NCBI GenBank assembly: GCA_017504785.1 | Contig: JAFVQL010000010.1 | Coordinates: 25,165 to 89,164, forward strand | Length of the DNA: 64,000 bases | Direction of reading: 5' to 3' | Origin: Clostridia bacterium | GTDB taxonomy: Bacteria; Bacillota; Clostridia; Oscillospirales; CAG-272 | Shown: positions 9,299 through 63,617 of the stretch, piece after piece | How the letters are laid out: each line of letters starts with the position of its first letter | Position numbering within the stretch: position 1 is the first letter of the stretch | The notes under the pieces: model-generated | Database searches by the model: none | What the model was told of the DNA's origin: nothing | The model's input: only the letters and a program-made list of their open reading frames with translations | Translations under genes and position numbers: made by a program

Positions 9299-9313
9299 GA
9301 GGAATCGGTATTC

Positions 9314-25046: not shown

Positions 25047-25060
25047 GGCTATACCCACGG

Positions 25061-25495
25061 TTACGGGGTTAATTTTTTCCTCATTCGCACAGCAGTGCCG
25101 CGACCGACCTTCGATCGCACGGACAAGGAGTCCATGAAGCTCTGCATCACGAGGAAGCCCATACCGCATCGTTCTTCGCCGTTTCCCGTTGTGTAAAAGG
25201 GCTCCTTTGCTTTCTCGACGTCTTCGATCCCGCATCCCTTATCCGTGATCTCTACCGAGATCTCGCGTCCCGAAAATAGGCGAACCGATATGTATACAAG
25301 CCCCTCACCGCTGCCCCCATAGGCATGAACGATCGCATTCGTGACCGCCTCGCTCACCGCAAGACGGATATCTCCAAGCTCCTCCACCGTTGGATTCAAG
25401 ACCGCAACGAATGCGCTGACGGCACTTCTTGCAACGCTTTCATTCTCGCTTTTCGCGGGAAGCCACAGCTTCATTTCATTTTCTGCTCTTTTCAT
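25061..25495 (-). CDS. spoIIAB: Anti-sigma F factor / serine kinase SpoIIAB
   Basis: 144 aa with HATPase motifs EAVTNAIVHAY, DKGCGI and GMGF. Its start forms an ATGA overlap with the spoIIAA stop. Confidence 0.93.
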   Translation of the reverse strand: MKRAENEMKLWLPAKSENESVARSAVSAFVAVLNPTVEELGDIRLAVSEAVTNAIVHAYGGSGEGLVYISVRLFSGREISVEITDKGCGIEDVEKAKEPFYTTGNGEERCGMGFLVMQSFMDSLSVRSKVGRGTAVRMRKKLTP

Positions 25496-25848
25496 TTTCT
25501 CTTCCTCTCTTCATTGCTTGCGGATGCGCCCGTGCAAACGGTGATATTCTTTCGCCCATCGATCCCGGAGAGGCGCAAAAGCTTCTCTGCCATGGGTGCA
25601 AGCCCCGAAAGCACAACGCAGAAGCCCAGATCCTCCCCCAGCGCCGATCGGCCGAGGATCAACGCAACGCCCGAGCTATCCATGAATCGGACGGACGAAA
25701 AATCCAGCCGCAAGACCCGCGGCCGATACGTAAACACCGCGCGGTCGATCGCCTCGCGCAAGGGCTTGGCCTTGTGGTGATCCACCTCGCAAAGCAGAGA
25801 TGCGTACAGCACGTCCCCTTCATAGGTCAAAGAGAGATTTTCATTCAT
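25492..25848 (-). CDS. spoIIAA: Anti-anti-sigma factor SpoIIAA (STAS domain)
   Basis: ORF 25492..26004. I moved the start to ATG 25848 (MNENLSLTYEG), which has GAAGGA upstream. The phosphorylatable motif is FMDSSGVALILG. Confidence 0.88.
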   Translation of the reverse strand: MNENLSLTYEGDVLYASLLCEVDHHKAKPLREAIDRAVFTYRPRVLRLDFSSVRFMDSSGVALILGRSALGEDLGFCVVLSGLAPMAEKLLRLSGIDGRKNITVCTGASASNEERKRK

Positions 25849-25990
25849 AGCACTATCCTTCATTTTGCGCCGCAACGAAGGCGGCTTCCTTCCTAACAAA
25901 AAATACAAAGCGAAAGCGCGTTTTGCGTTTCTTTCTCCTGTATTATAGCAAAGGTAAAATGAAAAAATTGTCATATGACGGAAAAGAAAA

Positions 25991-26900: not shown

Positions 26901-27512
26901 ATGATTTCGACAGAACTAAAGGCAAGGCGCAAGGCACTCGGGCTTACGCTGGAGGAGCTTGCGGAGCGCATCGGCACGAGCAAGCAAACCATTCACAGAT
27001 ACGAAAACGGACAGATCTCCAACATCCCCCCGGAGAAGGTGGAGGCGCTTGCGACTGCGCTTGAAACCACCCCCGCCGCACTCATGGGATGGGAGGGCGA
27101 AGCGGAGAATTTTAGGGAGATCCCTTCAAAGCGGCTTCCCCTCCTTGGGCGCATCGCGTGCGGACAGCCGATCTATGCCGCCAGCGAATACGGGAGCTTT
27201 TGCACGCCGGGGGGAGATATCGATGCGGATTTCTGCCTCGCCGCCAGCGGAGATTCCATGATCGGTGCGCGCATTTTTGACGGCGACATCGTTTTTATCC
27301 GCGCGCAGGACATGGTGGAAAACGGAGAGATCGCCGCCGTCGTGATCGAGGATGAGGCGACCTTAAAGCGCGTGTATTTCTACCCTGAAAAAAGCAAGCT
27401 GATCCTCTCGCCCGAGAATCCCAAATACGAGCCTTTGGTGTTCATCGGAGAAGAGCTGAATGCAGTTAAAATTCTTGGAAAAGCGGTGGCATATCAAAGT
27501 CGCCTGCTTTAA
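26901..27512 (+). CDS. XRE-family HTH repressor with a C-terminal S24 (LexA/CI/UmuD-type) autopeptidase domain
   Basis: 203 aa. The HTH is LTLEELAERIGTSKQTIHRYENG. The cleavage-site region is LLGRIACGQP, Cys-Gly as in UmuD. The catalytic Ser lies in ASGDSM and the catalytic Lys in EATLKRV. Confidence 0.88.
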   Translation: MISTELKARRKALGLTLEELAERIGTSKQTIHRYENGQISNIPPEKVEALATALETTPAALMGWEGEAENFREIPSKRLPLLGRIACGQPIYAASEYGSFCTPGGDIDADFCLAASGDSMIGARIFDGDIVFIRAQDMVENGEIAAVVIEDEATLKRVYFYPEKSKLILSPENPKYEPLVFIGEELNAVKILGKAVAYQSRLL

Positions 27513-28695: not shown

Positions 28696-31600
28696 TTATT
28701 CAGCCACAGCATCGTAACGAGCGATGATGTCACACTCAATACCGTAGACCTTTGCCGTCTCTTCGACTGCAGTCCAAGCATAGCCCGCTGCTGCTGCGAA
28801 GAGCTCTGCATTTGCCGCAATGCCGCTGATCTCAACGGTTGCACCTGCCTCTGCCTTGTAGAAGTCACCCTCTACAACGAACACACCGCCGGCAATCTTG
28901 AATGCGGAAGCGGAATCCAAAGTTGCAAGCATCTTGCCGTAGTAACCGAGGTTTTCACCGTCGATCTCAAGCGTTGCGCCGTTCTTCAGCGTGAATGCCT
29001 GTGCAAGATCAGAGCCGAAGGCCGCGCCTTCTCTCGAGGAATAGATCTTCAGCGATCCGCCGTTAATCTCATTGATGCCGAGGATAGGAATCGCATAACC
29101 GTTCAGATCCAATACATAGTCTGCCTTAAGAACAAGGTTTTCAATGCTGAATACATTCTTCTTACCGATTGCGAACGTAGTTCCGTCCTCATACTCGCCG
29201 GACAGCATCAAAGCCGTCAGATCCGCAGGATCGGTGTAAGGATCGCAAGAGCCATCGGGCTTCACAGCCACAAGATAGAAGCTCATAGAATCGTAGAAGG
29301 GAGTCACTTCAATGGTCAAGCCTACCCACGCCGCATCGACCACGTTGCCCTTCTTATCCACGCCCTCTGCCGCAAACGCATAGGTTCTGTTGGTGGAGTG
29401 ACGATAGAAGAGCTTTGCATCGTAATAATCGGCGTAATCATAGTATACAGTCTCGCCCGCAGCAACGTACTCCTTTACGTCCTCTGCCCATACGAGCAGT
29501 ACAACGTCAAGTGCATCGGCTACAAGGTAATTCGCATCAGCGGAAGCATCGCCTACCGCTACCGTCTGCTTTTTAGCAGCAATCACGAGAGCCGCATCTG
29601 CCAAGGAAACACCCTCGGGAAGAGTCGCGCCCGCGAAGGAATTCGAATAGGTCAATGCAAGACCCTTGGAAAGAACCACGGTGGATTTTTCGGAAGCGGG
29701 AATCTTCACGCCGAGGATCGCACCGCCAAGAGTTACTTCATAAGTACGAGCCGCATCCGCAAGGAGCGCATCCTTTGCGATCACGGTTGCATCGATATCG
29801 GCATTGATGCTTGCGCCTGCGCCGAGATCAAGAACGTAATTACCGGAAAGAACGAACGAACCGCCGTTGATCACAACGTCACTGATACTTGCGTTAACCT
29901 TGACAAGGGAAGCTGCCTTTGCAAGAACGTTTGCGCCGTCAAGGGTGAAGCCGCAAGCAGCCTCGAATACGGAGGTGCTGCCCGTGATAACGGCACCCTC
30001 CTTGGAAGAGGTGATCACCGCGCCCTGTGCATCTGCGGAGAGCAGGAACGCGCTTGCGCCCTTAACCGTCAGATCAAAGCCTGCAAGATCCAGCGTGATC
30101 GGTGCGTTGATCGCAAGAGGAGCACTAAGGGATACATCGCCAAGGAGCGTCACTACGGAGCCCGACGTTGCCCCTGCGATAAGAGACGCAACGTCTTCCT
30201 TTTTCGTAACGAACTCAACCACTCCCTCAGCATCCTCGATCATCGCATATACGGGTGATTCGGTCTTGAATTCGGGGAACAGCACGTAGTAAGAGTTGAT
30301 CGCAGAAGTGGGAACCGAGGTAAGCACGGCGCCTTCCACGCTGTACAGATGCCAATTGCCGGTAAAGGTATAAAGAATACCGTCAAGGTAATACTGCCGT
30401 TTGAACTCTTCGCCATCATATACAATGGGAGAATCTACCAAAAGAGGCGTATATCCTCTGGAATCAAACACCTCACCGGTATGATCCACAGCCCATTTAT
30501 AGAAAGCATACTTTGTCTTTTTAATGAAGTTGAGCTCCGTCGAAGCCACACCCGTCAAGGGGTTCACACGAACGACCTCTTCCGTTCGGAGACTGGGACT
30601 CAACGTATAATCAAAGGCATAACCGCCAACCTCAACACGCAGAGGCTCCTGGATGGATGCATCCTCGATGGGTGCAAGAAGAACAACCTTTGATCCGGAA
30701 CGGGTAGCCGCATATTTCACAGCCTTATCGAAACGGTCGTAAGCCACTTCGTTACCGCTCATTTCAACTACCTTGCACTTGGGTTCTCCGGGAGGATAGG
30801 GATAATCTGCATTATATTTAATGAAGGGATATTCTACCGCGTGCAGATCGGGGAATGCACCGCCGTTCTGGGTTCTGTATCTAAAGAATTCGCGAAGCTC
30901 GCGGCTCTCCTCGTACTGCGCGATATAAATATTATCCACGTTCAGATGCTGAGGGCCCGAAAAACTGGAGCCGGAAACACGGAACGCTCTGAAGTAAGTC
31001 GAGTTCGCGCTCCAGAAAACGCTCAGGTTGCTACCGGTGATAACCGTGTCACCGATCAAGAACTTTGCAAACAGCTGACCGTCAATGTAAGCGTATCCCT
31101 CGGTTCCGTCCGCTAACTGGTTGGTCGACAAAGCATCGGAGACCATGTTTTTTGTTGGGCCGCCAACCTTCACGACGATAGTCATGTGATACCATCTATT
31201 GTTCTCGGGGATAAACTCGTAGCTACCCTTTATACCAAGGATAGAGTCATTGGCAACAAAGCGCGCTTCGGAATCCACCAATTCTTTGCCGTTCATCTCC
31301 TTACGAAGCGTGAACCACATATCTCTGTTGGCCAAGTTTTGGTGGTTTCCGACGTCCCAACCCATACCGATGGATGAAATCGAGGCCCAGTCGTCTGCCA
31401 TGAAGTCGTAGTCGGTGACAAGGTAATCACCCTTACCGAGGAAGCCATACTTACTTGCACCGAAGTCGATGTAAGTGGTTTCTTTGTTGAGATCTCCGGT
31501 ATTTCCGGGGAAATCCATCGAGTAGTACTTATTACCGTACTTCTCTTCCACGTTGGCGCTGGCGCCGCCCGCTTCCTTATCCGCCTTCTTGCTACCGTCA

Positions 31601-31719
31601 TAATCAGCGAGAACCTTCACAGGCTCTGCCGCAGCCGCAGCGGAGGAAACGATTGCTCCTATGCCCACGAGCATAGAGACCAGCACGCTCATGATTAAAA
31701 ATTTTTGCAGTTTTTTCAT
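28696..31719 (-). CDS. Large secreted protein: signal peptide, LamG/concanavalin-like N-terminal region, beta-helix-like repeats; function unknown
   Basis: 1007 aa with RBS TAGGAGA. The signal peptide is MKKLQKFLIMSVLVSMLVGIGAIVSSAAAAA. NRWYHMTIVVKVGG...AYIDGQLF is lectin/LamG-like. Gly/Ala/Val-rich ITLDLAGFDLTVKGA-type repeats follow. There is no LPXTG, SLH or choline-binding anchor. Confidence 0.8.
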   Translation of the reverse strand: MKKLQKFLIMSVLVSMLVGIGAIVSSAAAAAEPVKVLADYDGSKKADKEAGGASANVEEKYGNKYYSMDFPGNTGDLNKETTYIDFGASKYGFLGKGDYLVTDYDFMADDWASISSIGMGWDVGNHQNLANRDMWFTLRKEMNGKELVDSEARFVANDSILGIKGSYEFIPENNRWYHMTIVVKVGGPTKNMVSDALSTNQLADGTEGYAYIDGQLFAKFLIGDTVITGSNLSVFWSANSTYFRAFRVSGSSFSGPQHLNVDNIYIAQYEESRELREFFRYRTQNGGAFPDLHAVEYPFIKYNADYPYPPGEPKCKVVEMSGNEVAYDRFDKAVKYAATRSGSKVVLLAPIEDASIQEPLRVEVGGYAFDYTLSPSLRTEEVVRVNPLTGVASTELNFIKKTKYAFYKWAVDHTGEVFDSRGYTPLLVDSPIVYDGEEFKRQYYLDGILYTFTGNWHLYSVEGAVLTSVPTSAINSYYVLFPEFKTESPVYAMIEDAEGVVEFVTKKEDVASLIAGATSGSVVTLLGDVSLSAPLAINAPITLDLAGFDLTVKGASAFLLSADAQGAVITSSKEGAVITGSTSVFEAACGFTLDGANVLAKAASLVKVNASISDVVINGGSFVLSGNYVLDLGAGASINADIDATVIAKDALLADAARTYEVTLGGAILGVKIPASEKSTVVLSKGLALTYSNSFAGATLPEGVSLADAALVIAAKKQTVAVGDASADANYLVADALDVVLLVWAEDVKEYVAAGETVYYDYADYYDAKLFYRHSTNRTYAFAAEGVDKKGNVVDAAWVGLTIEVTPFYDSMSFYLVAVKPDGSCDPYTDPADLTALMLSGEYEDGTTFAIGKKNVFSIENLVLKADYVLDLNGYAIPILGINEINGGSLKIYSSREGAAFGSDLAQAFTLKNGATLEIDGENLGYYGKMLATLDSASAFKIAGGVFVVEGDFYKAEAGATVEISGIAANAELFAAAAGYAWTAVEETAKVYGIECDIIARYDAVAE

Positions 31720-41385: not shown

Positions 41386-43821
41386 TTATATTTTTTGAAG
41401 CTTTGCGAAGGTCGCCATCAGCTTTTTCTCAAGGCCGTTATCAAACCTTACCTGATACAGAACGTCACCGCCCATATCCTTGGCGAACACGATCGTTCCC
41501 TCTCCGAAGGCCGTATGGCGCACGCGCGTTCCCACGGCAAGCTTCTCCACACCGAAGCTTTTCGGTCCGGCTTTTGCCTGCGATGCTCCGCCGAAGGCTT
41601 TGCGATTCATTTCCGAGAAGGCACTCTTGCCGAAAAACGGCGAGGGGGCTTTATTCTTCGGCGCGTAGCCGGCCGAGGGAATGCCGCGCGGCGGTATCAC
41701 ACGGGGCTTTTGCCGCACCGTGAGATCTTCGGGCACTTCGTCGCGGATAAAGCAGGAAAGGTTTCCGTAAGCGGTCCTTCCGTACATCATGCGGTTTTTC
41801 GCGTAGGTAATAAAAAGCTCGTCCTTCGCTCTCGTGATCGCCACGTAGCAAAGTCTGCGCTCCTCACTCATCTCGGCGGGATCGCTCATATTCGACTGCG
41901 ACGGAAAAAGCCCGTCCTCCATGCCTGCAAGGAATACCACGGGGAACTCCAGTCCCTTGGCAGAATGCACCGTCATCATCACGACGGCATCGGCATCCTC
42001 GTCGTACTTATCCACGTCACTGACGAGCGCGATCTCCTCGAGGAAGCCCGCAAGCGAGATCTCCTCTCCGTTTTCGTTCTGCCGCTTCTCATATTCCTTT
42101 GCGGCGGCAACAAATTCCTCTACGTTCTGGATCCTTCCCTCGCCCTCAAAGCCCTCGGCCGCGAGCATCTGCTTATATCCCGTCTCCTCAAAGAGCGCCG
42201 TGAGAAGCTCGGAGGGGAGCGTTTTCCCTTCCTTGATGCGATCGATCGTTTTCACAAAATCCGTAAGCTTTGCCGCGGAGCGCAAAAGCGCCGTGAAGCT
42301 CTCGGCGCGCGCCATGACCTCGTACATCGAAAGGCCGTTTTCTTTTCCGATCTGCTCCACCGCCTCGACCGTGGCGGCACCGATGCCGCGCTTCGGCTCG
42401 TTGATGATACGCTTTAAGCGCATATCGTCCCTGGGTGTGCAGGCAACCGTCAGATACGCGAGCATATCGCGGATCTCCTTGCGATCGTAGAAGCGCTGGC
42501 CGCCGAGAATGCGGTACGGAATACCGCTCTTGGTAAAGGTTGTCTCCAAGGAGCGCGCCAGCTCGTTCACGCGGTAAAGGATCGCGTAATCGCCGTACTT
42601 TCTTCCGTGTTCCACGCGATGCTTATTGATGGTTTCAATGATGTAACGCCCCTCGTCGATCTGATCGGAGGCCTCCTTGATCACGATGCGCTCGCCCGCG
42701 CCCTTTTCGGACCAAAGCTTTTTATCGTGGCGATCCTCGTTATGGCTGATGATCGCATTTGCCGCATTCAGAATGTTCTCGGTGGAACGGTAATTCTGCT
42801 CGAGCTTTACGACGTGCGCCTCGGGATAGGTCTTATCAAAATTCAAAATATTTTCGATCGTTGCACCGCGGAATTTATAGATGCTCTGATCGTCGTCACC
42901 CACGACCATGATATTGCGCTCTCTGTCCGAGAGAAGCTTCGTCAAAACGAACTGTGCATAGTTCGTGTCCTGATATTCATCCACCAAAACGTAGCGGAAT
43001 TTTCTTTGATAATACGATCTCGGCTCTTCAAAGCTTTCAAGCAGATGCACCGTTTGCATAATGATATCGTCAAAGTCCATCGCGTTGTATTCGCGCAGCT
43101 TTTTCTGATACAGCTTATAGATCTCGCGGATCTCCTTGGTGCGCGGATCACGCTCGATCTCAAACTTATCGGGCGTTTCAAGCCTGTCCTTTGCGCGGCT
43201 GATCGCACCTGCCACCGCCTTGGGAGCAAGTCTTTTTTCATCGATCGAAAGCTCCTTCATGCAGACCGAGATCAAACGCTTGCTATCATCGGTATCGTAG
43301 ATCGAGAAGCCGGGCGCATATCCGAGAAGCTCGCCGTACTTACGCAGAATGCGAAGGCAGATGGAGTGGAAGGTTCCCGTCCATACCGAGGCGGACACCT
43401 CGGGATCGGGAAACACGCGCTCAAGCCTTTCCTTGATCTCCTTGGCAGCCTTATTCGTAAAGGTAAACGCCAAAAGTGCCCACGGCGGGCAGGGATCCGA
43501 AATAAATTCGGGAAGGATCTCGGCGATCTCCTCGGGCGTGCTCTCCAGCGCCGCATCCAAGGCATCCGTCATATCCAGACTTACCGATTCGGGGATCTCT
43601 TCCGAATGATATGCGTTTCCGTATTTAATAAGGTAAGAAATGCGGTTAACAAGCACCGTGGTTTTTCCGCTTCCCGCGCCCGCAAGAACCAACAGCGGCC
43701 CCTTGGCACAAAAAACGGCTTCTCTTTGGCGCGCATTGAGCCGCGCGCCGTACACCTTGTCGAAAAGGCGGCGCTTGGCGGCTAAAAACCGCGCTTTTTT
43801 GTCTTCTGTCCTCATTTGCAT
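41386..43821 (-). CDS. pcrA: ATP-dependent DNA helicase PcrA (UvrD family)
   Basis: 811 aa. Motifs: AGAGSGKTTVL, VDEYQDTN, TVHSAKGLEFPVVFL. The C-terminal Tudor-like tail is GTRVRHTAFGEGTIV. Confidence 0.93.
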   Translation of the reverse strand: MQMRTEDKKARFLAAKRRLFDKVYGARLNARQREAVFCAKGPLLVLAGAGSGKTTVLVNRISYLIKYGNAYHSEEIPESVSLDMTDALDAALESTPEEIAEILPEFISDPCPPWALLAFTFTNKAAKEIKERLERVFPDPEVSASVWTGTFHSICLRILRKYGELLGYAPGFSIYDTDDSKRLISVCMKELSIDEKRLAPKAVAGAISRAKDRLETPDKFEIERDPRTKEIREIYKLYQKKLREYNAMDFDDIIMQTVHLLESFEEPRSYYQRKFRYVLVDEYQDTNYAQFVLTKLLSDRERNIMVVGDDDQSIYKFRGATIENILNFDKTYPEAHVVKLEQNYRSTENILNAANAIISHNEDRHDKKLWSEKGAGERIVIKEASDQIDEGRYIIETINKHRVEHGRKYGDYAILYRVNELARSLETTFTKSGIPYRILGGQRFYDRKEIRDMLAYLTVACTPRDDMRLKRIINEPKRGIGAATVEAVEQIGKENGLSMYEVMARAESFTALLRSAAKLTDFVKTIDRIKEGKTLPSELLTALFEETGYKQMLAAEGFEGEGRIQNVEEFVAAAKEYEKRQNENGEEISLAGFLEEIALVSDVDKYDEDADAVVMMTVHSAKGLEFPVVFLAGMEDGLFPSQSNMSDPAEMSEERRLCYVAITRAKDELFITYAKNRMMYGRTAYGNLSCFIRDEVPEDLTVRQKPRVIPPRGIPSAGYAPKNKAPSPFFGKSAFSEMNRKAFGGASQAKAGPKSFGVEKLAVGTRVRHTAFGEGTIVFAKDMGGDVLYQVRFDNGLEKKLMATFAKLQKI

Positions 43822-43918
43822 TCTATATTCTTCCGTTCTTTTTTGTTAATCGTATTTTCTGCGAAGTGTTTTTGCAGAATATGCGCGGCGGCACGTTTCA
43901 GCCACGCATAAAAAGCGG

Positions 43919-44110
43919 TTTTCCACAAAGCGAAAACTGCATTTTTCCCGAATGTCAATAGGGTTTTTAAAAAAAATCAAAATTTCGAGTTTTCCACAGC
44001 GTTTTCTGTGGAAAATGTGGAAAATACCGCGGACAAACCTATGAAACTCGGGGTTTTTGGAAAAAAATTCCTGTGTTTTCCACATTCGCGATTGTGGACA
44101 ATGTGGAAAA
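43919..44110. promoter_or_regulatory. DnaA-box cluster (7 boxes, each one mismatch from TTATCCACA)
   Basis: TTTTCCACA at 43919, 43990 and 44076. TGTGGAAAA at 44007, 44016 and 44102. TGTGGACAA at 44093. Two identical 35-bp modules are present (forward box, 8-nt gap, two abutting reverse boxes). Confidence 0.8.
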
Positions 44111-44276
44111 CTCGGTCTATCTTTTTCCGCACTTTTTATGCGAAAACGGCGTTTTTCACAAAAAATTCCTTTTTTCGCCTTTCCGCATACTGCCTTGATT
44201 TTTCGGGCTTTCGGACGGAGTATTTTCTACGAACATCTTTCTGTTTTCGCTTTTCGGCGGTTTGCAAAAAGCTTTT

Positions 44277-46379
44277 TCAGCGGCCGCCTTGTTTTTTGTG
44301 CACCGTGTGCATGGAGGCACCCGCGCGCCCCTTATTTTTGTTGCCTTTTGCAACACTGCCACGTCCCATTCGGTCTGCCTCGCGCAAGATCCGCGCGGCA
44401 TCCTCGCCGAATACGCGCGAAAGCTTCGTTTGCTTGCGCTTCACCTCCGCGGCGGTAACGGGCTTCGATCTTGCGCCCTGTCTTGCGTTCTGCGCTGCAG
44501 ACTTTGACCTTGCGTTCTGCGGCGAGGCGCGATGCGATTGCGATTTCTGATAGGGCATATTCTTGCCGCCCTTTCCGAAGGCGGGGCGCACCAGACAATC
44601 CGGCCCCGTGCCGATCAGATCCTCTCTGCCCGCAAGGCGTAGCGCTTCTCTTACGAGATTTGCGTTCTCGGGGCGGCTGAACTGCAGAAGCGCTCTCTGC
44701 AGCTGCTTTTCATGATAATCCGTGGTGACGGGCACGGGCTTCCCCGTCATGGGATGAATGCCCGTATAATACATTACGGTAGAGATCGTTCCCGGCGTGG
44801 GATAAAAATCCTGCACCTGCTCGGGCGAATAGCCCCATTTTTTGAGCCAGACCGCCATTTCCACCGCATCCTTCATTGTGGCACCCGGGTGCGACGACAT
44901 GAGATACGACACGAGATATTGCTCAAGGCCCGCCGCCTTGCATAGCGAAAAATACGTGCCCTTGAACTTTTCAAATACGGAAACGGGCGGCTTGCCCATC
45001 ATGGAAAGCGCACCGTCCGAGCAATGCTCGGGCGCTACCTTCAGCTGTCCCGAAACGTGCCGCTCGACGAGCTGCTTAAAGAAAGAGGTGTCCTTATCGT
45101 AGACAAGGTAATCAAACCTTATGCCCGAGCGCACGAATACCTTTTTCACTCCGGGAACGGCCTCGACCTCACGGAGAAGGCGCGCATATTCGGTGTGATC
45201 CACGACGAGGTTTTTACACGGCGTGGGCGCAAGGCACTTGCGGCGCTCGCACATACCGTTCTTTTGCTGCTGCTCGCAGGAGGGGTAACGAAAATTCGCC
45301 GTCGGACCGCCGACGTCGTTGATATATCCCTTAAAATCATGCATCGCCGCAATGCGATGCGCCTCGGCAACCACGCTCTCCACACTGCGGGAGCGCACCT
45401 CGCGCCCCTGATGAAAGGCGATGGCACAGAAATTGCACGCGCCGAAGCAACCGCGGTTATGCGTGATGGAATGCTTCACCTCGGTGATGGCGGGAACGCC
45501 GCCGAGGGCTTCGTAATCGGGGTGGTACTCGCGCGTAAAGGGCAAGGCGTACACGCGATCCAGCTCCTCGCGCGAAAGCGGGGGCATCGGGGGATTTTGC
45601 ACGAGCATTTTATCTGCGTAATACTCGATCACGGCCTTGCCGCGCACGGAATCCGTGTTGCGGTACTGCGTGGCGAAGGCAGCGGCATACGCCGCTTTAT
45701 CGGTTTTCAGCTCGTCGTAATCCCCGATCGAAACGCTCTCAAAGAAAACGGGATCGCCCTTTTTGGCAAGATACACGCATCCGCGCACGTCACGGATCTT
45801 TCGGATCGGAACACCCTTATCAAGCAGCGCGGCAATGCGAAGGAGAATGTTTTCCCCCATACCGTAGGTCAGAAGATCCGCCCTCGAATCCACGAGGATA
45901 CTGCGGCGCACCCTGTCATCCCAATAATCGTAATGGGCAAAGCGGCGAAGCGATGCCTCGAGGCCGCCGAGAATGATCGGCACGTCGCCGTACGCCTCTC
46001 GGATGCGGTTGGAATAGACGATAACGGCGCGGTCCGGGCGCGCGCCCATCTTACCGCCCGCGCTGTAATAATCGTACGAGCGCCTTTTCTTGGAAACGGT
46101 GTAATGCGCCACCATGGAGTCGATATTGCCCGCCGTTACCAAAAAGCCGAGGCGCGGACGGCCGAAGCGGCGAAAATCCTCACAGCTCTTATAGTCCGGC
46201 TGGGAAAGGATCGCAACCGAAAAGCCCGCCGCCTCTAAAACGCGGCTAATGATCGCAACGCCAAAGGACGGATGATCCACGTACGCATCACCCGTAACAT
46301 ATACAAAATCCACCGTGCCGAGACCTCTTTCTCGCACGTCCGCCATGCTGACGGGGAGAAAATCCTTGCGATCTGCCAT
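44277..46379 (-). CDS. ygiQ: YgiQ-family (UPF0313) radical SAM protein
   Basis: ORF 44277..46388. The likely start is ATG 46379 (MADRKDFLPVSMADV), with AGGAG 8 nt upstream. The radical SAM motif is CFGACNFC. A basic, low-complexity C-terminal tail is present. Confidence 0.9.
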   Translation of the reverse strand: MADRKDFLPVSMADVRERGLGTVDFVYVTGDAYVDHPSFGVAIISRVLEAAGFSVAILSQPDYKSCEDFRRFGRPRLGFLVTAGNIDSMVAHYTVSKKRRSYDYYSAGGKMGARPDRAVIVYSNRIREAYGDVPIILGGLEASLRRFAHYDYWDDRVRRSILVDSRADLLTYGMGENILLRIAALLDKGVPIRKIRDVRGCVYLAKKGDPVFFESVSIGDYDELKTDKAAYAAAFATQYRNTDSVRGKAVIEYYADKMLVQNPPMPPLSREELDRVYALPFTREYHPDYEALGGVPAITEVKHSITHNRGCFGACNFCAIAFHQGREVRSRSVESVVAEAHRIAAMHDFKGYINDVGGPTANFRYPSCEQQQKNGMCERRKCLAPTPCKNLVVDHTEYARLLREVEAVPGVKKVFVRSGIRFDYLVYDKDTSFFKQLVERHVSGQLKVAPEHCSDGALSMMGKPPVSVFEKFKGTYFSLCKAAGLEQYLVSYLMSSHPGATMKDAVEMAVWLKKWGYSPEQVQDFYPTPGTISTVMYYTGIHPMTGKPVPVTTDYHEKQLQRALLQFSRPENANLVREALRLAGREDLIGTGPDCLVRPAFGKGGKNMPYQKSQSHRASPQNARSKSAAQNARQGARSKPVTAAEVKRKQTKLSRVFGEDAARILREADRMGRGSVAKGNKNKGRAGASMHTVHKKQGGR

Positions 46380-46491
46380 AGCCGCCACTCCTTTTTAACA
46401 AAAAAATGGAATATGTTTTTAAGGACAGAAACCGTCCGAGAGGTATCTCACGGGCGGCTTCTATTCAATATTTGCAAACAATTGTTTTCAT

Positions 46492-47736
46492 TTAGATGGA
46501 AAACGAAGCAAGCTCGACCTCGCTCTGCGTACCATCTTTCATATTGCGGAGCTGTGCCTTCCCGCACTCGATCTCGCTATCGCCGAGAATCAGAGTGTAC
46601 GCCGCGCCGATCTTATTGGCATATTTCATCTGTGCCTTCAGGCTTCTGCCAACGACGTCGCACTCACAGAAAACACCGCTTCTGCGAAGTCTTTCCGTGA
46701 TGGCCTGCGCCTCGATGGAGGCCGCATCGCCGAGCGCCGCAATGTAAAGACGGGGTGCATTTTCCTTAATTTCCTTATCGAGCCCCTGCTCCTTCATCGC
46801 AAGCAGAACGCGGGTGATACCCATGCCGAAGCCGATGCCGGGAAGCGCAGGACCGCCGATGGACTCCACGAGTCCGTTATAACGGCCGCCGCCGCAAACC
46901 GTGGACTGCGCGCCGATGCCCTCGGCAATAAACTCAAACACCGTGCCGGTGTAATAATCGAGACCTCTCACGATGCCGGAATCGATCTCGTACGGCACGT
47001 CCATTTTGTCGAGCGCGGCCGTCAGCGTCTTAAACTTTTTCTCGCAATCCTCGCAAAGGTGGTCCACCGTTTTGGGCGCGTTTTTCGCAAGCGCGGCGCA
47101 GGGAGGATTCTTGCAGTCGAGAAGTCTTAAGGGATTCTTATCAAGGCGCTCCTTGCAGGTATCGCAGATCTCTCCCTTATGCGCGGTATAATAATCCACG
47201 AGTGCCGCACGGTAGCCGGGGCGGCAGGTGGGGCAACCGATCGAATTGATATGCAGCTTCACGTTCTTAAGCCCGAGGCGGCGAAGCACCGAGGAGGCAA
47301 GCGCAATGACCGTAGCGTCTGCGGCAGGACTGTCCGAGCCGAACATCTCGGTTCCGAACTGGAAGAACTCGCGGCTTCTGCCTGCCTGCGGCTTTTCGTG
47401 GCGGAAGCAGGAAATGATATAGTAATACTTTAAGGGCATGGTCTCGCTGTAACGGCCGTTTTCGATCAGCGCACGCGCGACCGAAGCCGTTCCCTCGGGG
47501 CGAAGGGAGATCGAGCGGTTCTCATCTCTGTCCGCAAAGGTATACATTTCCTTCTGCACCACGTCCGTCGTATCACCGACGCCGCGGACGAAAAGCTCGG
47601 TATTTTCAAAGGTGGGCGTTCGGATCTCTCCGAAGCCGTAGCGCGCGGCCTCCTCGCGCATGATACCCTCCATATAGCGAAAAAGCACGGTATCCTCGGG
47701 GAAGAGGTCCATCGTTCCTTTAATTTTCTGAATCAT
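46492..47736 (-). CDS. hisS: Histidine--tRNA ligase
   Basis: 414 aa. Motifs: IKGTMD, FRHEKPQAGRSREF, CGGGRYNGL. Confidence 0.96.
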   Translation of the reverse strand: MIQKIKGTMDLFPEDTVLFRYMEGIMREEAARYGFGEIRTPTFENTELFVRGVGDTTDVVQKEMYTFADRDENRSISLRPEGTASVARALIENGRYSETMPLKYYYIISCFRHEKPQAGRSREFFQFGTEMFGSDSPAADATVIALASSVLRRLGLKNVKLHINSIGCPTCRPGYRAALVDYYTAHKGEICDTCKERLDKNPLRLLDCKNPPCAALAKNAPKTVDHLCEDCEKKFKTLTAALDKMDVPYEIDSGIVRGLDYYTGTVFEFIAEGIGAQSTVCGGGRYNGLVESIGGPALPGIGFGMGITRVLLAMKEQGLDKEIKENAPRLYIAALGDAASIEAQAITERLRRSGVFCECDVVGRSLKAQMKYANKIGAAYTLILGDSEIECGKAQLRNMKDGTQSEVELASFSI

Positions 47737-48130
47737 TTATGTTTTCCTCCTTGTGCGCTTCCTTCATCAAGCAAAGAAGCCTTTCTTCATCCTTCAGATA
47801 ATAGAGCATACCGATCAGCGCCTCAAACCCCGTGGCGTACCGATAATCCGTCGCCGTTGCTCCTTTGGGGCGGTGGGGATGCGAAGCATTGGCCGCACGG
47901 CGAAAAACGCCTGCCTCATCCTCCGTGAGATACGGGAGCAGGCGGCGCATACGCTCGGCCTGCTTCTTTGCCGTGACGAAGGAAAGAGCCGCTTCGTTCA
48001 GCTGACCGGGCTTTTCGATGCCCGCATCGATCAAAAGGCGGCGCACGTAAAGAGAATACCACGCATCCCCGAGATAGGCAAGCACTGCCCCCGAGGGTAG
48101 ATTCGCCCCCACGATCCTCTGCTCTTGCAT
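47720..48130 (-). CDS. mrnC: Mini-ribonuclease 3 (Mini-III)
   Basis: 136 aa. Motifs: LAYLGDAWYSLYVR and ATGFEALIG. It overlaps the hisS start by 17 nt. Confidence 0.88.
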   Translation of the reverse strand: MQEQRIVGANLPSGAVLAYLGDAWYSLYVRRLLIDAGIEKPGQLNEAALSFVTAKKQAERMRRLLPYLTEDEAGVFRRAANASHPHRPKGATATDYRYATGFEALIGMLYYLKDEERLLCLMKEAHKEENINDSEN

Positions 48131-57800: not shown

Positions 57801-58136
57801 GTGAAAGCAAGAAAAAAGAGCTACGCGAAGGATCTGCCGCGCAGACTCTACACCTTCTTTATTGGCTATGACGACGAAAGGAGCGCCCCCAGCCTTCAAA
57901 AATTCGCCAGAGCCAACGGCTTTACGACCGAGGAGCTGCTCACCTTCCGAAGGCACGGCGACTTTGAGCGCGCACTCCGCGAATGCAATGAAATTCGCAG
58001 GGATTACCTGATAGACAGAGGATTGACCAAGCGGTTTGACGCATCCTTCGTCAAATACCTTCTGGACGGCGAGGCTTCCGAGCAGCAGAGCGAGGAGGAC
58101 TCCTCTCTTTCGGTGACGCTCGAGGTGCTCCCATGA
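57801..58136 (+). CDS. Terminase small subunit (putative)
   Basis: ORF 57753..58136. I prefer GTG 57801 (VKARKKSYAKDL), which has AAAGGAGAA 6 nt upstream. The HTH-like stretch is SLQKFARANGFTTEELLTF. It overlaps the terL start by 4 nt. Confidence 0.65.
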   Translation: MKARKKSYAKDLPRRLYTFFIGYDDERSAPSLQKFARANGFTTEELLTFRRHGDFERALRECNEIRRDYLIDRGLTKRFDASFVKYLLDGEASEQQSEEDSSLSVTLEVLP

Positions 58137-59497
58137 AGCTGCATCTCACGGTCACGAAAAAGCAAAAGGCCTTCATGGATGCCGATGCCACCGAGGTTCT
58201 CTTCGGCGGCGCGGCGGGCGGCGGAAAATCCTACGGCCAGCTGGTGGACGCGCTGATCGTCGCACTTCGCTATCCCGGCTCCAAGCAGCTGATCCTACGG
58301 CGCAGCTTTGCGGAGCTTGAAAAATCTCTGATCCGAACGTCACTTGCACTCTTTCCGAGAAAGATCTACCGCTTCAATCAGTCCACCCACGTCGGGCGAT
58401 TTCACAACGGCTCCTGCCTTGACTTCGGGTACTGTGCGGCGGAAAACGACGTATACCAGTATCAGAGCGCGGAATATGACGTCGTTCGCTTCGACGAGCT
58501 GACCCATTTCACCGAGGCACAGTATCTGTATCTCATCTCCCGCGTGCGCGGCGCAAACGCCTTTCCCAAGCAGATCAAATCCTCCACCAACCCGGGCGGC
58601 GTTGGGCACGGATGGGTCAAGGCGCGGTTCGTCGATCCCGCACCGCCGAGCACTCCCTTCACGGGCAGGGACGGAATGAAACGCATCTTTCTTCCCTCTC
58701 TGCTCTCGGACAACCGCTTTTTAAGCGAGGGCGATCCAAGCTACAAAGAGCGCCTGCTCGCTCTCCCCGAGCGGGAGAGAAAAGCGCTTCTGCACGGTGA
58801 CTGGAATATCTTTGACGGGCAGTATTTTTCGGAATTTTCCACGGCAAAGCACACCTGTTCCCCCTTCGAGATTCCAAATTCATGGAGAAAATGGCGCACG
58901 GTGGACTACGGACTTGACCGCCTCGCCTGCCTCTGGATCGCCGTTGACCCCGAGGGGCGCGCCTACGTTTACCGCGAATTCTGTGCTTCGGATCTGCCGA
59001 TCAAGGAGGCGGCAGACGCCATTCTTTCCCACACGCCGAAAAACGAAGAGATCTACGCTACCTTGGCGCCGCCCGATCTTTTCAGCCGCAGTCAGGAAAG
59101 CGGAAAAAGCAAGGCAAGCCTTTTCGCCTCCTACGGCGTGCCGTTCACGAAATGCTCCAACAACCGAGAGGCGGGCTGGCTCTCGGTGAAGGACCTTCTG
59201 CGCGAAAGGAACGGCAAGCCCTCTCTTTCCTTTTTCTCGCATTGCACGGAGCTGATCCGATGCCTGCCCGCCTTGCAGGTCGATAAGCGCCGCCCCAGCG
59301 ACTGCGCGACCGAGCCGCACGATATCACCCACGCCCCCGATGCCCTGCGCGGCTTCGCCGTTTCCTTTGCAAGGCCCGCGCCCATAAAGAGCACCGCGAG
59401 CGGCCGCGTGTGGAGCGCGGATATGTGGGAGGATTATTTTGCCGCGGACGAGGAAGGAAAGCAATACCTAAAACGCAAATACGGAGAACCCCTATGA
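58133..59497 (+). CDS. Terminase large subunit
   Basis: 454 aa. Walker A-like FGGAAGGGKSYG, Walker B VVRFDELTHF, and a C-terminal RNaseH-like nuclease region (VDYGL...DAL). Confidence 0.88.
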   Translation: MKLHLTVTKKQKAFMDADATEVLFGGAAGGGKSYGQLVDALIVALRYPGSKQLILRRSFAELEKSLIRTSLALFPRKIYRFNQSTHVGRFHNGSCLDFGYCAAENDVYQYQSAEYDVVRFDELTHFTEAQYLYLISRVRGANAFPKQIKSSTNPGGVGHGWVKARFVDPAPPSTPFTGRDGMKRIFLPSLLSDNRFLSEGDPSYKERLLALPERERKALLHGDWNIFDGQYFSEFSTAKHTCSPFEIPNSWRKWRTVDYGLDRLACLWIAVDPEGRAYVYREFCASDLPIKEAADAILSHTPKNEEIYATLAPPDLFSRSQESGKSKASLFASYGVPFTKCSNNREAGWLSVKDLLRERNGKPSLSFFSHCTELIRCLPALQVDKRRPSDCATEPHDITHAPDALRGFAVSFARPAPIKSTASGRVWSADMWEDYFAADEEGKQYLKRKYGEPL

Positions 59498-61263
59498 CAC
59501 AAAACGAAAACGCATCTCAGCGGCTTTCCTACTTTACATCTCTTTATGAAAAAAGCAAGAACGCCGCGCAAAGCGCGCTTGCGCTTTACGATCGGCACAT
59601 GCGCCAGTACCGCGGCAGTGCCGAGATCGACGGATCGACCGAGAAGGCCGTCACCGTCCGCAACATCACCTACGAAATGATCGAAGGCCAGGTATCCTCG
59701 CACATTCCGCCGCCCAAGGTGGACCCCACGGCTTACAGTGAAGAAAAGGTCCGCCTCGCGCAATCGGTGGAAAGACTGCTCGTCGCCGTGCGCGAAAAGC
59801 TCCCCTACGAGCAGATGAACGATCTCGACGAGCGCTTTTGCTATATCTACGGCGGAAGCGTTTGGTTCGCGGAATGGGACAGCCGCGCGGGCGTCGGCAA
59901 CAAGATCGGCGGCGTGACGCTGCATTGCCTATCCCCCAAGGACTTCATTCCCCAGCCCGGCGCACGCTCCGTGGAGGATATGGATTACTGCTTTCTTCGC
60001 TTCGACACCACGAAGGCAGAGCTGATACGCAAGTACGGCGTTAGCGAAGAATCCCTTTCTCTTGCCGAGCGAGAATACGACAGCGACGCCTACGAGGGGG
60101 ATGCCGACGAGGGCGCGACGGTGATCCTCTGCTTCTATCGCGACGAGAATGGAAGGATCGGCGAATACGCCTTTTCAGGCGAGCTTACGCTGACCGACAT
60201 TCCCGATTACTACGCGCGAAAAAGACGGATCTGCACCGCTTGCGGAGGCGAGGAGCAAAATTGCCTTTGCGAGCATCCGCGCTTCACGCTTGAAAATCAG
60301 AACGAGGAGGGCCTGCATCTGCACACTCTCCCCGACGGCAAGCAGGTATTCGCGCCCGCACGCGATGCAAAGAGCCATCTTTATATCCCCTATTACACGC
60401 CTAAGCGTTTCCCCATCGTCATCCGAAAAAACACCTCTCTTGAGGGAAGCCTTTTCGGTGCATCCGACTGCGAGGTGATCCGACCGCAGCAGCAGGCGAT
60501 CAACAAGATCGAATCCCGCATTCTGCAAAAGCTTCTGCGCGCCGGCGTTACCCCCGTCGTGCCCGAGGATGCGACCATTACGCTCAACAACTCGGTCTTC
60601 GGCCAGCTGATCAAGATGAAGCCCGGAGAAAGCGCGGCACAGTACGGCAAGGTGGATACCACGCCCGACATATCCCAGGATATTGCCGAGGCATCCCGTC
60701 TTTACGACCATGCCAAGCGCATTCTCGGTATTTCCGACGCGCTCGTCGGCATCGACAACGCAAAAAACGAATCGGGCTATGCAAGAAAGCTGCAGATCTC
60801 GCAGGCAACGGGACGGCTCGAATCCAAGCGAAAGATGAAGTATACCGCCTATGCGGAGCTGGATCGCCTGATCTTTGAGTATCACCTCGCCTTCGCGGAC
60901 GAGCCGCGAAGGATCTCTTACAGAGACGCCTACGGCCGCCTTCACAACGCGACCTTCAACCGCTACGATTTTATCGCCCCGGACGAAACGGACGGCTCGT
61001 TTTATTATGACGACGATTACCTTTTCTCCGTGGATCTGAACGGCGGCGCGGAGGCACAGCGCGAGCTTCTTTGGGAAAAGAACCTTGAAAACCTCAAAAG
61101 CGGCGCACTGGGCGATCCGACACTCGCCGTTACGCTGCTGCGCTATTGGCAATGCCAGGAGCGCGCGCATTACCCGTATGCACGAGAAAACGTGGAATAC
61201 TTCCAGAGCGCAATCAACGAGCAAACGGAGGCGAAGGCTAAAGCAGAGGAGGTGATCGTGTGA
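59494..61263 (+). CDS. Portal protein (putative)
   Basis: ORF 59410..61263. I moved the start to ATG 59494 (MTQNENASQRLSYF), which forms an ATGA overlap with the terL stop. Its size (589 aa) and position fit a portal. It contains a CxxC...CxC insertion. Confidence 0.7.
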   Translation: MTQNENASQRLSYFTSLYEKSKNAAQSALALYDRHMRQYRGSAEIDGSTEKAVTVRNITYEMIEGQVSSHIPPPKVDPTAYSEEKVRLAQSVERLLVAVREKLPYEQMNDLDERFCYIYGGSVWFAEWDSRAGVGNKIGGVTLHCLSPKDFIPQPGARSVEDMDYCFLRFDTTKAELIRKYGVSEESLSLAEREYDSDAYEGDADEGATVILCFYRDENGRIGEYAFSGELTLTDIPDYYARKRRICTACGGEEQNCLCEHPRFTLENQNEEGLHLHTLPDGKQVFAPARDAKSHLYIPYYTPKRFPIVIRKNTSLEGSLFGASDCEVIRPQQQAINKIESRILQKLLRAGVTPVVPEDATITLNNSVFGQLIKMKPGESAAQYGKVDTTPDISQDIAEASRLYDHAKRILGISDALVGIDNAKNESGYARKLQISQATGRLESKRKMKYTAYAELDRLIFEYHLAFADEPRRISYRDAYGRLHNATFNRYDFIAPDETDGSFYYDDDYLFSVDLNGGAEAQRELLWEKNLENLKSGALGDPTLAVTLLRYWQCQERAHYPYARENVEYFQSAINEQTEAKAKAEEVIV

Positions 61264-61913
61264 CAGAGGATCTCACACGCCTGAAAAAGCAGAACGCCCC
61301 CGACAGCTTCAGCGTTTGGCTTCGCAAGCAAGGCGCGGCGGCAAGTACCGCCGGCGCGGACAGCGCGGCAAGGGCTTTCGCAGCAAACACGCTCACGCAC
61401 GGCACGGGCGCGGAACGCCTTTTTGACAAGGGTTTGGAGGAAAGCGGCTACGCGCGCTACCTTTCCGATCAGGCAAAAAAGAGCTTTGAAGAGCAAAAAA
61501 AGGCTCTTGCCACCGAAAACGCCGCAAGAAAGGAAAAGGATCTTTCGGGCTACGCGAGGTATCTTACCTCGCACGAGGAAAGCCAAAAGAGCCTTACCCG
61601 CAGAGTGACCGAAAGCATCGGCAAGGGCAAGAGCTTTGATCTTGAAAACGCCTACCGCGTGGCACTCGCCGCGGGACTGACCGAGGAAAACGCGAGAGCC
61701 GCCGCCGAGATCGGCATCGGTGCGGCGAAAAAGCAGGCGACCGCACAGCTGCTTGAAATGATCCTTGAGAAAAGATTGCAGGCAAACCGCGTGAAGAAAT
61801 ATGCGCTCGAGATAGGATTTTCCGAGCAAGAGGCAGAAACCTTCGGTGCTTACGCCAAGGACATCAACGCCGTCAGCATCCCCTCTAAAATCCCCGAAAA
61901 ACTCTTCGAATAA
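61260..61913 (+). CDS. Phage head-module protein, unknown function
   Basis: 217 aa from a GTG start that overlaps the portal stop. It has an internal duplication (SGYARYLSDQ / SGYARYLTSH). Confidence 0.6.
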   Translation: MTEDLTRLKKQNAPDSFSVWLRKQGAAASTAGADSAARAFAANTLTHGTGAERLFDKGLEESGYARYLSDQAKKSFEEQKKALATENAARKEKDLSGYARYLTSHEESQKSLTRRVTESIGKGKSFDLENAYRVALAAGLTEENARAAAEIGIGAAKKQATAQLLEMILEKRLQANRVKKYALEIGFSEQEAETFGAYAKDINAVSIPSKIPEKLFE

Positions 61914-61937
61914 ATTTAAAACACGAAAGGAAATTTT

Positions 61938-62075
61938 ATGAAAAAGGAAAATTTTTCTCCCTACGCTACCAATAAGGGCGGCAAGATCGCAGCCCCCAAA
62001 AGCACCGCCAAGGACGAGCCTCGCGCCACCAAAACCACGGGTGACGACCTGCGCGTAAAAAGAAAGAAGGGCTGA
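61938..62075 (+). CDS. Small basic ORF (45 aa) in the head module
   Basis: Below the ORF-track length cut-off. ATG 61938 has GAAAGGA 7 nt upstream. The translation is MKKENFSPYATNKGGKIAAPKSTAKDEPRATKTTGDDLRVKRKKG. It ends 2 nt before the next gene. Confidence 0.4.
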   Translation: MKKENFSPYATNKGGKIAAPKSTAKDEPRATKTTGDDLRVKRKKG

Positions 62076-62077
62076 TC

Positions 62078-62536
62078 ATGGAAGATACGGTTCTTGAAGG
62101 CGCGGCGATGGAAGCGCCGCCCGCCGCCGCAGAAGCCGCGCTCGAAGAGAGCGATGCACCCGCGCTTATCCCCGAAAAGGACGCCGAGGAGAGTGAAAAG
62201 GCAGATTACGAAGCCATCGCGCGAGCGGATCTTGCGGATCTCAAGGAGCAGTTTCCCGCGCTCGGCGCGCTTGCTTCTCTGACGGAGCTTCCCGACCCCC
62301 TACGCTATGCCGAGCTGCGCGAGCTTGGACTTTCGCCCCGCGAGGCCTATCTTGCCACGGGCGGCATCCCGAGAAAAAGGAGCGACAACCGCGCCCATCT
62401 TTTCAGCTCCGTTCCGCGCACGAGCGCACGCGGCAGAGATCTTCCATCCACCGAGCAGATGGCCGAGGCGCGCCGCTTATTCTCGGATCTTAACGATACG
62501 GAAATCTACCGTTTATATAAAAAAGTCAGCAATTAA
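62078..62536 (+). CDS. Scaffolding protein (putative)
   Basis: 152 aa with an acidic, Ala/Glu-rich, helix-prone N-terminal half. It lies immediately upstream of the capsid gene. Confidence 0.55.
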   Translation: MEDTVLEGAAMEAPPAAAEAALEESDAPALIPEKDAEESEKADYEAIARADLADLKEQFPALGALASLTELPDPLRYAELRELGLSPREAYLATGGIPRKRSDNRAHLFSSVPRTSARGRDLPSTEQMAEARRLFSDLNDTEIYRLYKKVSN

Positions 62537-62555
62537 GAAAGGAAAACAAAGTTAA

Positions 62556-63611: not shown

Positions 63612-63617
63612 TAAAGA

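Follow-up and report, generated by a model that had tools for sequence, protein, structure and literature searches.

The window analysed here is a 64,000-nucleotide stretch of the genome of a Clostridia bacterium, uncultured and from the gut (assembly GCA_017504785.1). Its feature of interest is a cluster of DnaA-type boxes in the 455-bp gap between ygiQ and pcrA, both of which lie on the minus strand (Table 1). Five assemblies have an identical gap, and ENA contigs reaching 97 kb represent the same species. Since the host carries spoIIAA-spoIIAB-sigF, it is probably a spore-former.

Table 1. Features of the ygiQ-pcrA region and neighboring genes (window coordinates)
Feature	Position	Strand	Remarks
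rsmG	3779-4522	+	next gene encodes a 149-aa protein whose sole domain is HTH_ParB
pcrA	41386-43821	-	UvrD/PcrA-family helicase, 811 aa; NCBIfam TIGR01073, E 1e-240; identical call on 5 public contigs
P2	43849-43865		operator-like 17-bp palindrome, degenerate (TTCGTAA-N3-TTACGAA as consensus of the clade); 28 nt from pcrA ATG
Single DnaA box	43919-43927	+	TTTTCCACA; -98 to -106 from pcrA ATG
Motif E	43930-43952	-	tCGGGaAAatGcAGTTT, resembling motif B; preceded by TTGACA (reverse complement at 43953-43958); conserved in the 16-genome alignment
AT-rich stretch	43961-43989		present in the window; equivalent position GC-rich in L007, L015 and L019
Module 1	43990-44024		TTTTCCACA, N8, TGTGGAAAA, TGTGGAAAA; -169 to -203 from pcrA ATG
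Module 2	44076-44110		TTTTCCACA, N8, TGTGGACAA, TGTGGAAAA; -255 to -289 from pcrA ATG
Motif B	44111-44132	-	clade consensus AACGGAAAAGTGGAGTTTTT; adjoins module 2 on its upstream side (pcrA orientation)
P1	44217-44233		second 17-bp palindrome copy; ~45 nt after ygiQ stop; GGCAG at a fixed ~24 nt
ygiQ	44277-46388	-	radical SAM protein, upstream of and co-oriented with pcrA; NCBIfam TIGR03904, E 7e-248
hisS	46492-47736	-	beyond ygiQ
mrnC	47720-48130	-	beyond hisS

No dnaA or dnaN had been seen in the window, and gene calls from -4.9 to +73.6 kb (window coordinates, ~79 kb) confirmed that neither is present. The preliminary description also placed rsmG and a ParB-like gene 40 kb away. Both exist, but rsmG is not in the minus-strand open reading frame and the likeness to ParB is confined to the HTH_ParB domain; the pair adjoins pgk and tpiA and is detached from the usual origin gene cluster. 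A switch in coding strand had been placed at the boxes themselves. It actually falls at about 48.2 kb, between mrnC and yggS, with ygiQ, hisS and mrnC still on the minus strand. Of the gene counts offered for it, that to the right of 48.2 kb (15 of 18 on the plus strand) was reproduced, while that to the left of 44 kb was recounted as 23 of 34 on the minus strand rather than 24 of 35. Eight of those 15 plus-strand genes are members of a single phage-like operon, some 17 genes long, on which the orientation switch largely rests. The open reading frame at 90–716 (+) is spurious.

The cluster consists of seven 9-mers, each at most one mismatch from TTATCCACA, within 192 bp (43919–44110) of the intergenic gap, an arrangement that qualifies as a DnaA-box cluster. 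TTTTCCACA occurs on the plus strand at 43919, 43990 and 44076, its reverse form TGTGGAAAA at 44007, 44016 and 44102, and TGTGGACAA at 44093; all of the coordinates first reported for these boxes are correct. Six of them make up the two 35-bp modules, 86 bp apart, each with a forward box, an 8-nt spacer and two abutting reverse boxes; this duplication, too, is borne out by the sequence. Read in the orientation of pcrA, each module is box-box-N8-inverted box. The open reading frames overlapping the boxes had been described as lacking ribosome-binding sites and as built from the boxes themselves. Pfam gave no match for them, and gene calls on five public contigs of this species leave them out.

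The density is far above chance. Twenty-eight such 9-mers are present in the window, 21 of them in the 63.8 kb outside the cluster, and from this background about 0.06 would be expected in the 192 bp. The pattern TTWTCCACA occurs eight times in the window against 0.72 expected, a number reached in 0 of 100 shuffles, and only one further TTTTCCACA was found in the window, at 38784. The A-value of Ishikawa et al., calculated with the formula in PMC2533591, is 4/28.7 = 0.14 (threshold 0.3, four successive boxes) with B. subtilis weights, in which TTTTCCACA counts 1 and which may not fit this host; it becomes 0.56 if TTTTCCACA is the host's top-affinity box.

Relatives were collected by scanning GTDB genomes with PcrA, which gave 80 loci, the closest PcrA being 67% identical. 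Fifteen genomes of uncultured Clostridia with PcrA 60–67% identical (L006–L019 and L040) make up, with the window, a set of 16. The gene order mrnC-hisS-ygiQ-pcrA, with 450–680 bp between the last two, is kept in 15 of 15 relatives. Boxes at most one mismatch from consensus lie upstream of pcrA in 13 of the 15, in most of them some 180–330 bp from the gene, and L016 and L019 have the variant TTTTCAACA in their place. TTWTCMACA reaches a density of 6.5/kb in the 16 ygiQ-pcrA gaps, about 109-fold above the 0.06/kb of the remaining 366 kb of these loci; 58 boxes were counted in the gaps against a total of 0.53 in shuffled gaps. The 9+9+8+9 geometry of the module recurs about 200 bp before pcrA in 14 of the 16 genomes, as well as on the metagenome contigs L176 and L208; in these two contigs, as in the window, the module is duplicated. 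Variation is found mainly at box positions 3 and 6, with T4, A7, C8 and A9 retained; the orthologous boxes include the perfect consensus TTATCCACA (L007), and the middle box of the module is the most degenerate across the clade. No conserved counterpart of the single box at 43919–43927 was seen in the alignment of the 16 gaps.

That the cluster is a real, selected set of DnaA-type boxes whose position and geometry are kept in no fewer than 16 species-level genomes is strongly supported. Selection has kept both the format of the module (two head-to-tail boxes that face an inverted one across 8 bp) and its place some 200 bp ahead of pcrA in a clade of family rank, made up of uncultured gut Clostridia that are probably spore-forming. 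Relatives with PcrA at most 59% identical show neither the ygiQ-pcrA synteny nor the boxes; in a pcrA lineage at 59% identity the ygiQ-pcrA arrangement gives way to a short, ordinary promoter gap from which boxes are absent. Throughout the box-bearing clade the synteny is unbroken, and because of this sequence alone does not tell linkage of the boxes to pcrA from their linkage to ygiQ or to chromosomal position, nor a titration site from a pcrA promoter site.

The MAFFT alignment of the 16 gaps, in which a consensus column required at least 8 of the 16 genomes, revealed a fixed order of elements: P1-GGCAG, motif B, module 2, a GCTTTTTCGACAAAAAG block, module 1, motif E, P2, the ribosome-binding site and pcrA. 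In the clade, module 1 reads TTTTCCACA TTTTCAACA N8 TGTGGAAAAC and module 2 appears as the block GTTTTCnACA...AAAATGTKGAAAAC. The P1 block reads cGTAAta.TTACGAA...GGCAGAa, and the block cGTAaaaTTTACGAA, in the P2 region, is conserved 25–110 nt upstream of pcrA. The half-palindrome TTACGAA is present at 3.05/kb in the ygiQ-pcrA gaps and at 0.21/kb in other intergenic DNA. The GCTTTTTCGACAAAAAG block of the clade, which is absent from the window, holds an exact reverse Spo0A-box heptamer; TGTCGAA occurs at 1.24/kb in the ygiQ-pcrA gaps and at 0.03/kb in the intergenic DNA elsewhere in these loci. Spo0A boxes occur in B. subtilis oriC, and Spo0A is a candidate factor for this TTCGACA block. The conservation of P1, P2 and the TTCGACA block indicates that factors in addition to DnaA probably act at the gap.

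No positionally conserved strong sigma-70 promoter was found in the gaps of the clade. The only good sigma-70-like match in the window, TTAACA-18-TAGAAT (43849 to 43820), abuts P2 and overlaps the annotated start codon of pcrA; it would imply a near-leaderless mRNA starting from the second ATG, and it is not conserved. The preliminary description held that the pcrA promoter had to be within 43822–43920, a placement that is unproven. Motifs B and E carry -10-like hexamers in some relatives, the second half of motif B resembling such a hexamer (e.g. TATACT) in several, and motif B may be regarded as a candidate promoter by inference only. Several other assignments were considered and rejected. 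A LexA/SOS operator does not fit P1 and P2, since the palindrome is not enriched in the window and is not visible upstream of the XRE-S24 repressor gene. Reading frames of a small ORF after P1 are not conserved across the relatives on inspection of the alignment, and sigma-54, sigma-H and sigma-F readings of motifs B and E with GGCAG misfit in their spacings (by inspection only).

A scan of metagenomes with the pattern TTTTCMACA-N8-TGTKGAAAA returned 120 matches, mostly isolated palindromes, with about ten multi-box clusters. Those of the clade itself are on L176 and L208, and clusters in other contexts away from dnaA are on L146, L153, L154, L166 and L174, the flanking genes having been inspected for L146, L154 and L166. 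In three unrelated metagenomic contigs (L112, L136 and L186) the pair TTTTCCACA-N8-TGTGGAAAA(CT) lies 60–170 bp upstream of dnaA. On L136 it directly follows a TATACT hexamer and directly precedes dnaA, an arrangement analogous to that of motif B, and its counterpart on L112 has TTCGACA and TTCGTAA motifs beside it that resemble those of the clade's gap. Its occurrence upstream of dnaA in unrelated contigs marks the inverted 9-N8-9 pair as a recurrent and genuine DnaA-associated element, found both upstream of dnaA (in regions that include the dnaA promoter and origin-proximal DNA) and at loci away from it.

The preliminary description offered three readings of the locus, namely an origin, a titration site and a DnaA-controlled pcrA promoter. 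Their common premise, a DnaA-box cluster, holds in view of its enrichment and conservation; the origin reading, to which the description gave most weight, is not supported. A chromosomal origin separated from dnaA, or half of a bipartite one, was suggested by the dense boxes adjoining an AT-rich stretch, by the absence of dnaA nearby, and by genes mostly on the minus strand to the left and mostly on the plus strand from 48.2 kb rightwards; moreover, neither dnaA nor the true origin of the clade was located. Adjacency to dnaA is not obligatory for an origin, E. coli oriC being separated from it. However, both flanks of the cluster have a negative GC skew, and the cumulative GC skew, proposed earlier as a check and run here on the window, falls monotonically across it with no minimum at the cluster or elsewhere.

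In an effort to separate skew from gene orientation, third-position coding-strand skews of plus- and minus-strand genes were compared on each side (window and flanks, 79 kb). Minus-strand genes are alike everywhere in the 79 kb, and so are plus-strand genes. To the left of 44 kb the strand component R_GC3 is -0.038 and R_AT3 +0.098; to the right of 48.2 kb R_GC3 is -0.017 to -0.053 and R_AT3 +0.14 to +0.16, so that each has the same sign on both sides. For the 16 genomes, genes were called de novo, a procedure that reproduced the public gene set of the window; the pooled R_AT3 was -0.075 [-0.10, -0.05] on the upstream side of the gap and -0.080 [-0.11, -0.05] on the downstream side. Genome-specific skews on the two sides are positively correlated (GC3, r = 0.73, p = 0.003; AT3, r = 0.53, p = 0.05), which argues against an origin, since this predicts opposite signs. 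This result speaks likewise against an origin at the mrnC/yggS divergence, 4.3 kb away, which would give R near 0 on the upstream side. Third positions of the window have C > G and A > T on the plus strand, so that the minus strand would be the leading strand and forks would pass from right to left. The forks are therefore co-directional with hisS, ygiQ and pcrA, a last step that rests on the usual enrichment of leading strands in G and T; the skew signal is modest in size.

The layout of the locus points the same way. The flanking genes are co-oriented, and in 16 of 16 genomes ygiQ, hisS and mrnC would be head-on to a leftward fork. By analogy with E. coli R1 and with box 6/7 and the trios in B. 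subtilis, origin boxes would point toward the unwinding element; within each module the boxes converge and do not point at the AT-rich element. The AT-rich stretch beside the boxes exists, as had been described, but it is not conserved, and its GC-rich equivalents (Table 1) argue against a conserved unwinding element. A search for the basal-unwinding signature (a box with at most 2 mismatches, a spacer of at most 16 bp and at least 3 NAN trios; PMC8287927) found no box with at least 3 DnaA-trios in the window. Matches in relatives were the inverted box itself or T-runs and were not positionally conserved, whereas the positive control, the dnaA-dnaN spacer of L186, yielded a box followed by TTG CTA ATA ATA ATA ATT (six trios).

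On balance, we consider it probable that the cluster is an extra-origin DnaA-binding region that makes expression of pcrA responsive to DnaA and that may also buffer DnaA; both the occupancy by DnaA and the effect on pcrA transcription are inferred. In the mechanism proposed, DnaA, at least three molecules per module, would assemble into short, mutually facing complexes, which could not extend toward an unwinding element and would instead modulate transcription that enters pcrA or initiates in front of it. The level of PcrA helicase would thereby be coupled to the status of DnaA, in the manner of B. subtilis DnaA at sda, ywlC and yydA, and the six or seven bound molecules would buffer free DnaA as a side effect. 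PcrA helicase clears RecA filaments and resolves transcription-replication conflicts. To our knowledge pcrA is not a DnaA target in B. subtilis, and no DnaA-pcrA link surfaced in the literature by title or abstract.

A second possibility, which we regard as open to doubt, is a site that modulates only how available or active DnaA is, with no role in transcription of pcrA: a titration cluster, a datA-like site, or DARS-like nucleotide exchange. The module shares with the E. coli DARS1 core the order and orientation of three boxes and the 35-bp span, it is duplicated in the window, L176 and L208, and the modules stand at least 170 bp from the start codon, which is far for a simple operator. The DARS1 core (NC_000913.3) is TTATCCACT-N5-TGTGGATAA-N3-TGTGTATTA, and the arrangement in DARS is head-to-head for boxes I and II and head-to-tail for II and III (PMC6868365). 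Against this reading, the start-to-start spacings are 17+9 bp here and 14+12 bp in DARS, and DARS1 has its strongest box in the middle, where the module has its weakest; the likeness appears to be a resemblance only. DARS is known only from gamma-proteobacteria, and no DARS or datA equivalent is known in Firmicutes or other Gram-positive bacteria.

The timing of initiation is affected by the B. subtilis clusters, according to PMC3245932, in which deletion of all six leads to early initiation. The precedents in E. coli and B. subtilis often also regulate the neighboring gene, so that a site of this kind does not exclude a DnaA-responsive pcrA. There is a slim chance that the module is a Firmicute counterpart of the DARS/datA class, one that would not simply bind DnaA but remodel it through head-to-head DnaA contacts, with a change in its nucleotide state or availability, in front of a repair/replication helicase gene; if true, this would be an element of that class outside the gamma-proteobacteria, where none is known.

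It is improbable that the repeats have nothing to do with DnaA and serve instead as an operator at which some other regulator, a dimer, recognizes the extended inverted repeat AGTTTTCCACATTTT / AAAATGTGGAAAACT, or as a hairpin in RNA or DNA, for example an attenuator or terminator. Together with their flanks, the outer boxes do form 15-nt inverted arms, a CTTTTT run lies just past the distal arm in several relatives, and the conserved P1/P2 and B/E motifs show further factors to be at work. Yet the 9-mers match the DnaA-box family exactly, with perfect consensus in L007, a third box that abuts its neighbor head-to-tail is characteristic of DnaA arrays and not of a dimer operator, and the same pair stands directly upstream of dnaA in unrelated genomes. 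In addition, the C/A variant at position 6 is discordant between the arms in L014, L015, L017 and L018 and concordant in L009, L019, the window, L176 and L208. Since it toggles independently in the two arms, pairing is not maintained, which argues for protein sites and not for a hairpin. No terminator was called on the pcrA strand, and an RNA element was rejected, with no Rfam family matching at the gathering score, chance-level matches only at E <= 1, and hairpin arms without covariation.

The replication origin is highly unlikely: with no switch in skew, co-oriented flanks, no signature of box and trios, an unconserved AT-rich flank and no dnaA or dnaN within ~79 kb, it is not supported.

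Should DnaA control pcrA, as in the preferred reading, the activity state of the initiator would be linked to helicase supply, and a new branch of the DnaA regulon would be added in a large group of gut Clostridia that is wholly uncultured. For studying how facing DnaA protomers behave in Gram-positive bacteria, the conserved 35-bp module also offers a precise DNA substrate. For annotation, the locus is a warning that dense DnaA boxes and an AT-rich patch are insufficient grounds for assigning an origin when a metagenome-assembled genome is fragmented.

Among known systems, an oriC with a basal unwinding system likewise has multiple DnaA boxes and, as in the genome of the window, an AT-rich patch; the ygiQ-pcrA gap differs from it in having no trios, convergent boxes, no skew switch, no dnaA or dnaN, and co-oriented flanks. 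With DARS the module has in common three boxes, one forward facing two reverse, in 35 bp, with I/II head-to-head and II/III head-to-tail, and DARS1 is also upstream of a DNA-repair gene (uvrB), as the cluster is before pcrA. It departs from DARS1 in its N8/N0 spacings (N5/N3 in DARS1), in core sequence, and in not having its strongest box in the middle. Among regions upstream of dnaA in Firmicutes, those on L112, L136 and L186 contain an identical box-N8-box pair; here the downstream gene is pcrA, and neither a dnaA-dnaN unit nor an unwinding element of box and trios is nearby. A DnaA-regulated promoter would have boxes in it or close by, conserved together with its gene; those of the cluster, at -98 to -289 from the pcrA ATG, hold a position conserved in the clade, and the promoter itself was not located.

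In B. subtilis, DnaA-box clusters exist outside oriC and some regulate neighboring genes, as stated in PMC2533591 and PMC3245932. Examples are those at sda, ywlC, yydA, ywcI-vpr, gcp-ydiF and thdF-jag, which are conserved among Bacillus species (Ishikawa et al., PMC2533591). The present cluster is like them in being an intergenic group of boxes with at most one mismatch, outside oriC, in a Firmicute, beside a potentially regulated gene and conserved among relatives. It is unlike them in that the neighboring gene is pcrA, the preferred box is TTTTCCACA or TTTTCAACA, and the loose array of B. subtilis is replaced by a rigid, duplicated three-box module.

The 455-bp gap between ygiQ and pcrA carries, besides its DnaA boxes, several conserved motifs. 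A 17-bp palindrome, with the clade consensus TTCGTAA-N3-TTACGAA, is present in two copies (P1 and P2), one on each side of the DnaA-box region, in the window and in the related gaps of uncultured Clostridia. The half-site TTACGAA is approximately 15-fold enriched in the ygiQ-pcrA gaps versus other intergenic DNA, and the palindrome showed no enrichment in the rest of the window. The two three-box DnaA modules are themselves flanked by motif B and by its diverged copy, motif E; in some relatives the second half of motif B looks like a -10 hexamer (TATACT).

In most relatives an exact reverse Spo0A-box heptamer, TTCGACA, lying inside GCTTTTTCGACAAAAAG, abuts DnaA module 1 on its upstream side (L008-L010, L014, L015, L017-L019 and L040); the block is missing from the window at the equivalent position, ~44025-44040. 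TTCGACA also sits between the DnaA boxes upstream of dnaA in metagenomic contig L112. These placements suggest a joint input of DnaA and Spo0A.

Positions and surroundings of the motifs, phage-like genes and DnaA-box clusters
Feature	Position	Setting	Remarks
Palindrome P2	43849-43865	25-110 nt before the pcrA start in aligned blocks	L006-L019, L040
Motif E	43930-43952	flanks modules	diverged second copy of motif B
Motif B, CGGAAAAGTGGAGTTT	44111-44132	flanks modules	conserved
Palindrome P1	44217-44233	shortly after ygiQ; GGCAG at a fixed ~24 nt beyond	aligned in L006-L019, L040
Terminase large subunit	58133-59497	phage-like block
SU10-like portal	59494-61263	phage-like block
L146 cluster	~1500-1580	yitT / acyl-ACP thioesterase
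L154 cluster	~1350-1810	MFS / amino-acid kinase
L166 cluster	~2300-2570	upstream of an Amidase_3 gene
L153 cluster		upstream of an ORF without annotation	family scan covered the L146, L154 and L166 flanks
L174 cluster		after a gene with a guaA-like C-terminal end	by eye

Elsewhere in the window, the gene that comes after rsmG encodes a 149-aa protein whose sole domain is HTH_ParB (3779-5115, +, for the two genes); the pair adjoins pgk and tpiA and lies apart from mnmG, mnmE, jag, yidC and rnpA. The ORFs at 3743-4438 (-) and 90-716 (+) were rejected as spurious. A His-rich 687-aa gene (7691-9754, -) is intact on the ENA contig, where its product matched no Pfam family, and is interrupted in the window (ORF 7691-9298 only); the difference reflects either variation between strains or a frameshift within a repeat protein. 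No family match was obtained for the neighbouring proteins of 836 aa (5126-7636) and 1007 aa (28696-31719) either. A spoIIAA-spoIIAB-sigF operon lies at 24309-25875 (-), and immediately left of the window come the genes for SpoVG, for a SCIFF peptide and for the radical-SAM maturase of that peptide. A 203-aa XRE-HTH and S24 peptidase repressor (26901-27512, +) has a LexA-like cleavage domain without the canonical LexA DNA-binding domain.

At the right end, some 17 co-oriented phage-like structural genes occupy 57801-64000 and run on to ~72 kb on contig L086. They also code for an adaptor and for an LRR_5 protein of 904 aa, and are flanked by an ABC-F gene on one side and a PALP-domain gene, then secG, on the other. 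No integrase, replication or lysis genes were seen in the block (57801 to ~72 kb), a candidate GTA-like element or defective prophage. To the right of 48 kb, much of the bias towards the plus strand comes from this block.

Dense DnaA-box clusters with the same TTTTCCACA-N8-TGTGGAAAA inverted pair were found, not adjoining dnaA, in metagenomic contigs L146, L153, L154, L166 and L174; clusters with this layout may occur widely outside origins. The pair also lies directly upstream of dnaA in L186 (9575-9720), L112 (188-690) and L136 (~255-290), which are canonical dnaA loci of unrelated metagenomic Firmicutes, and the dnaA-dnaN spacer of L186 holds a textbook box and six-trio array.
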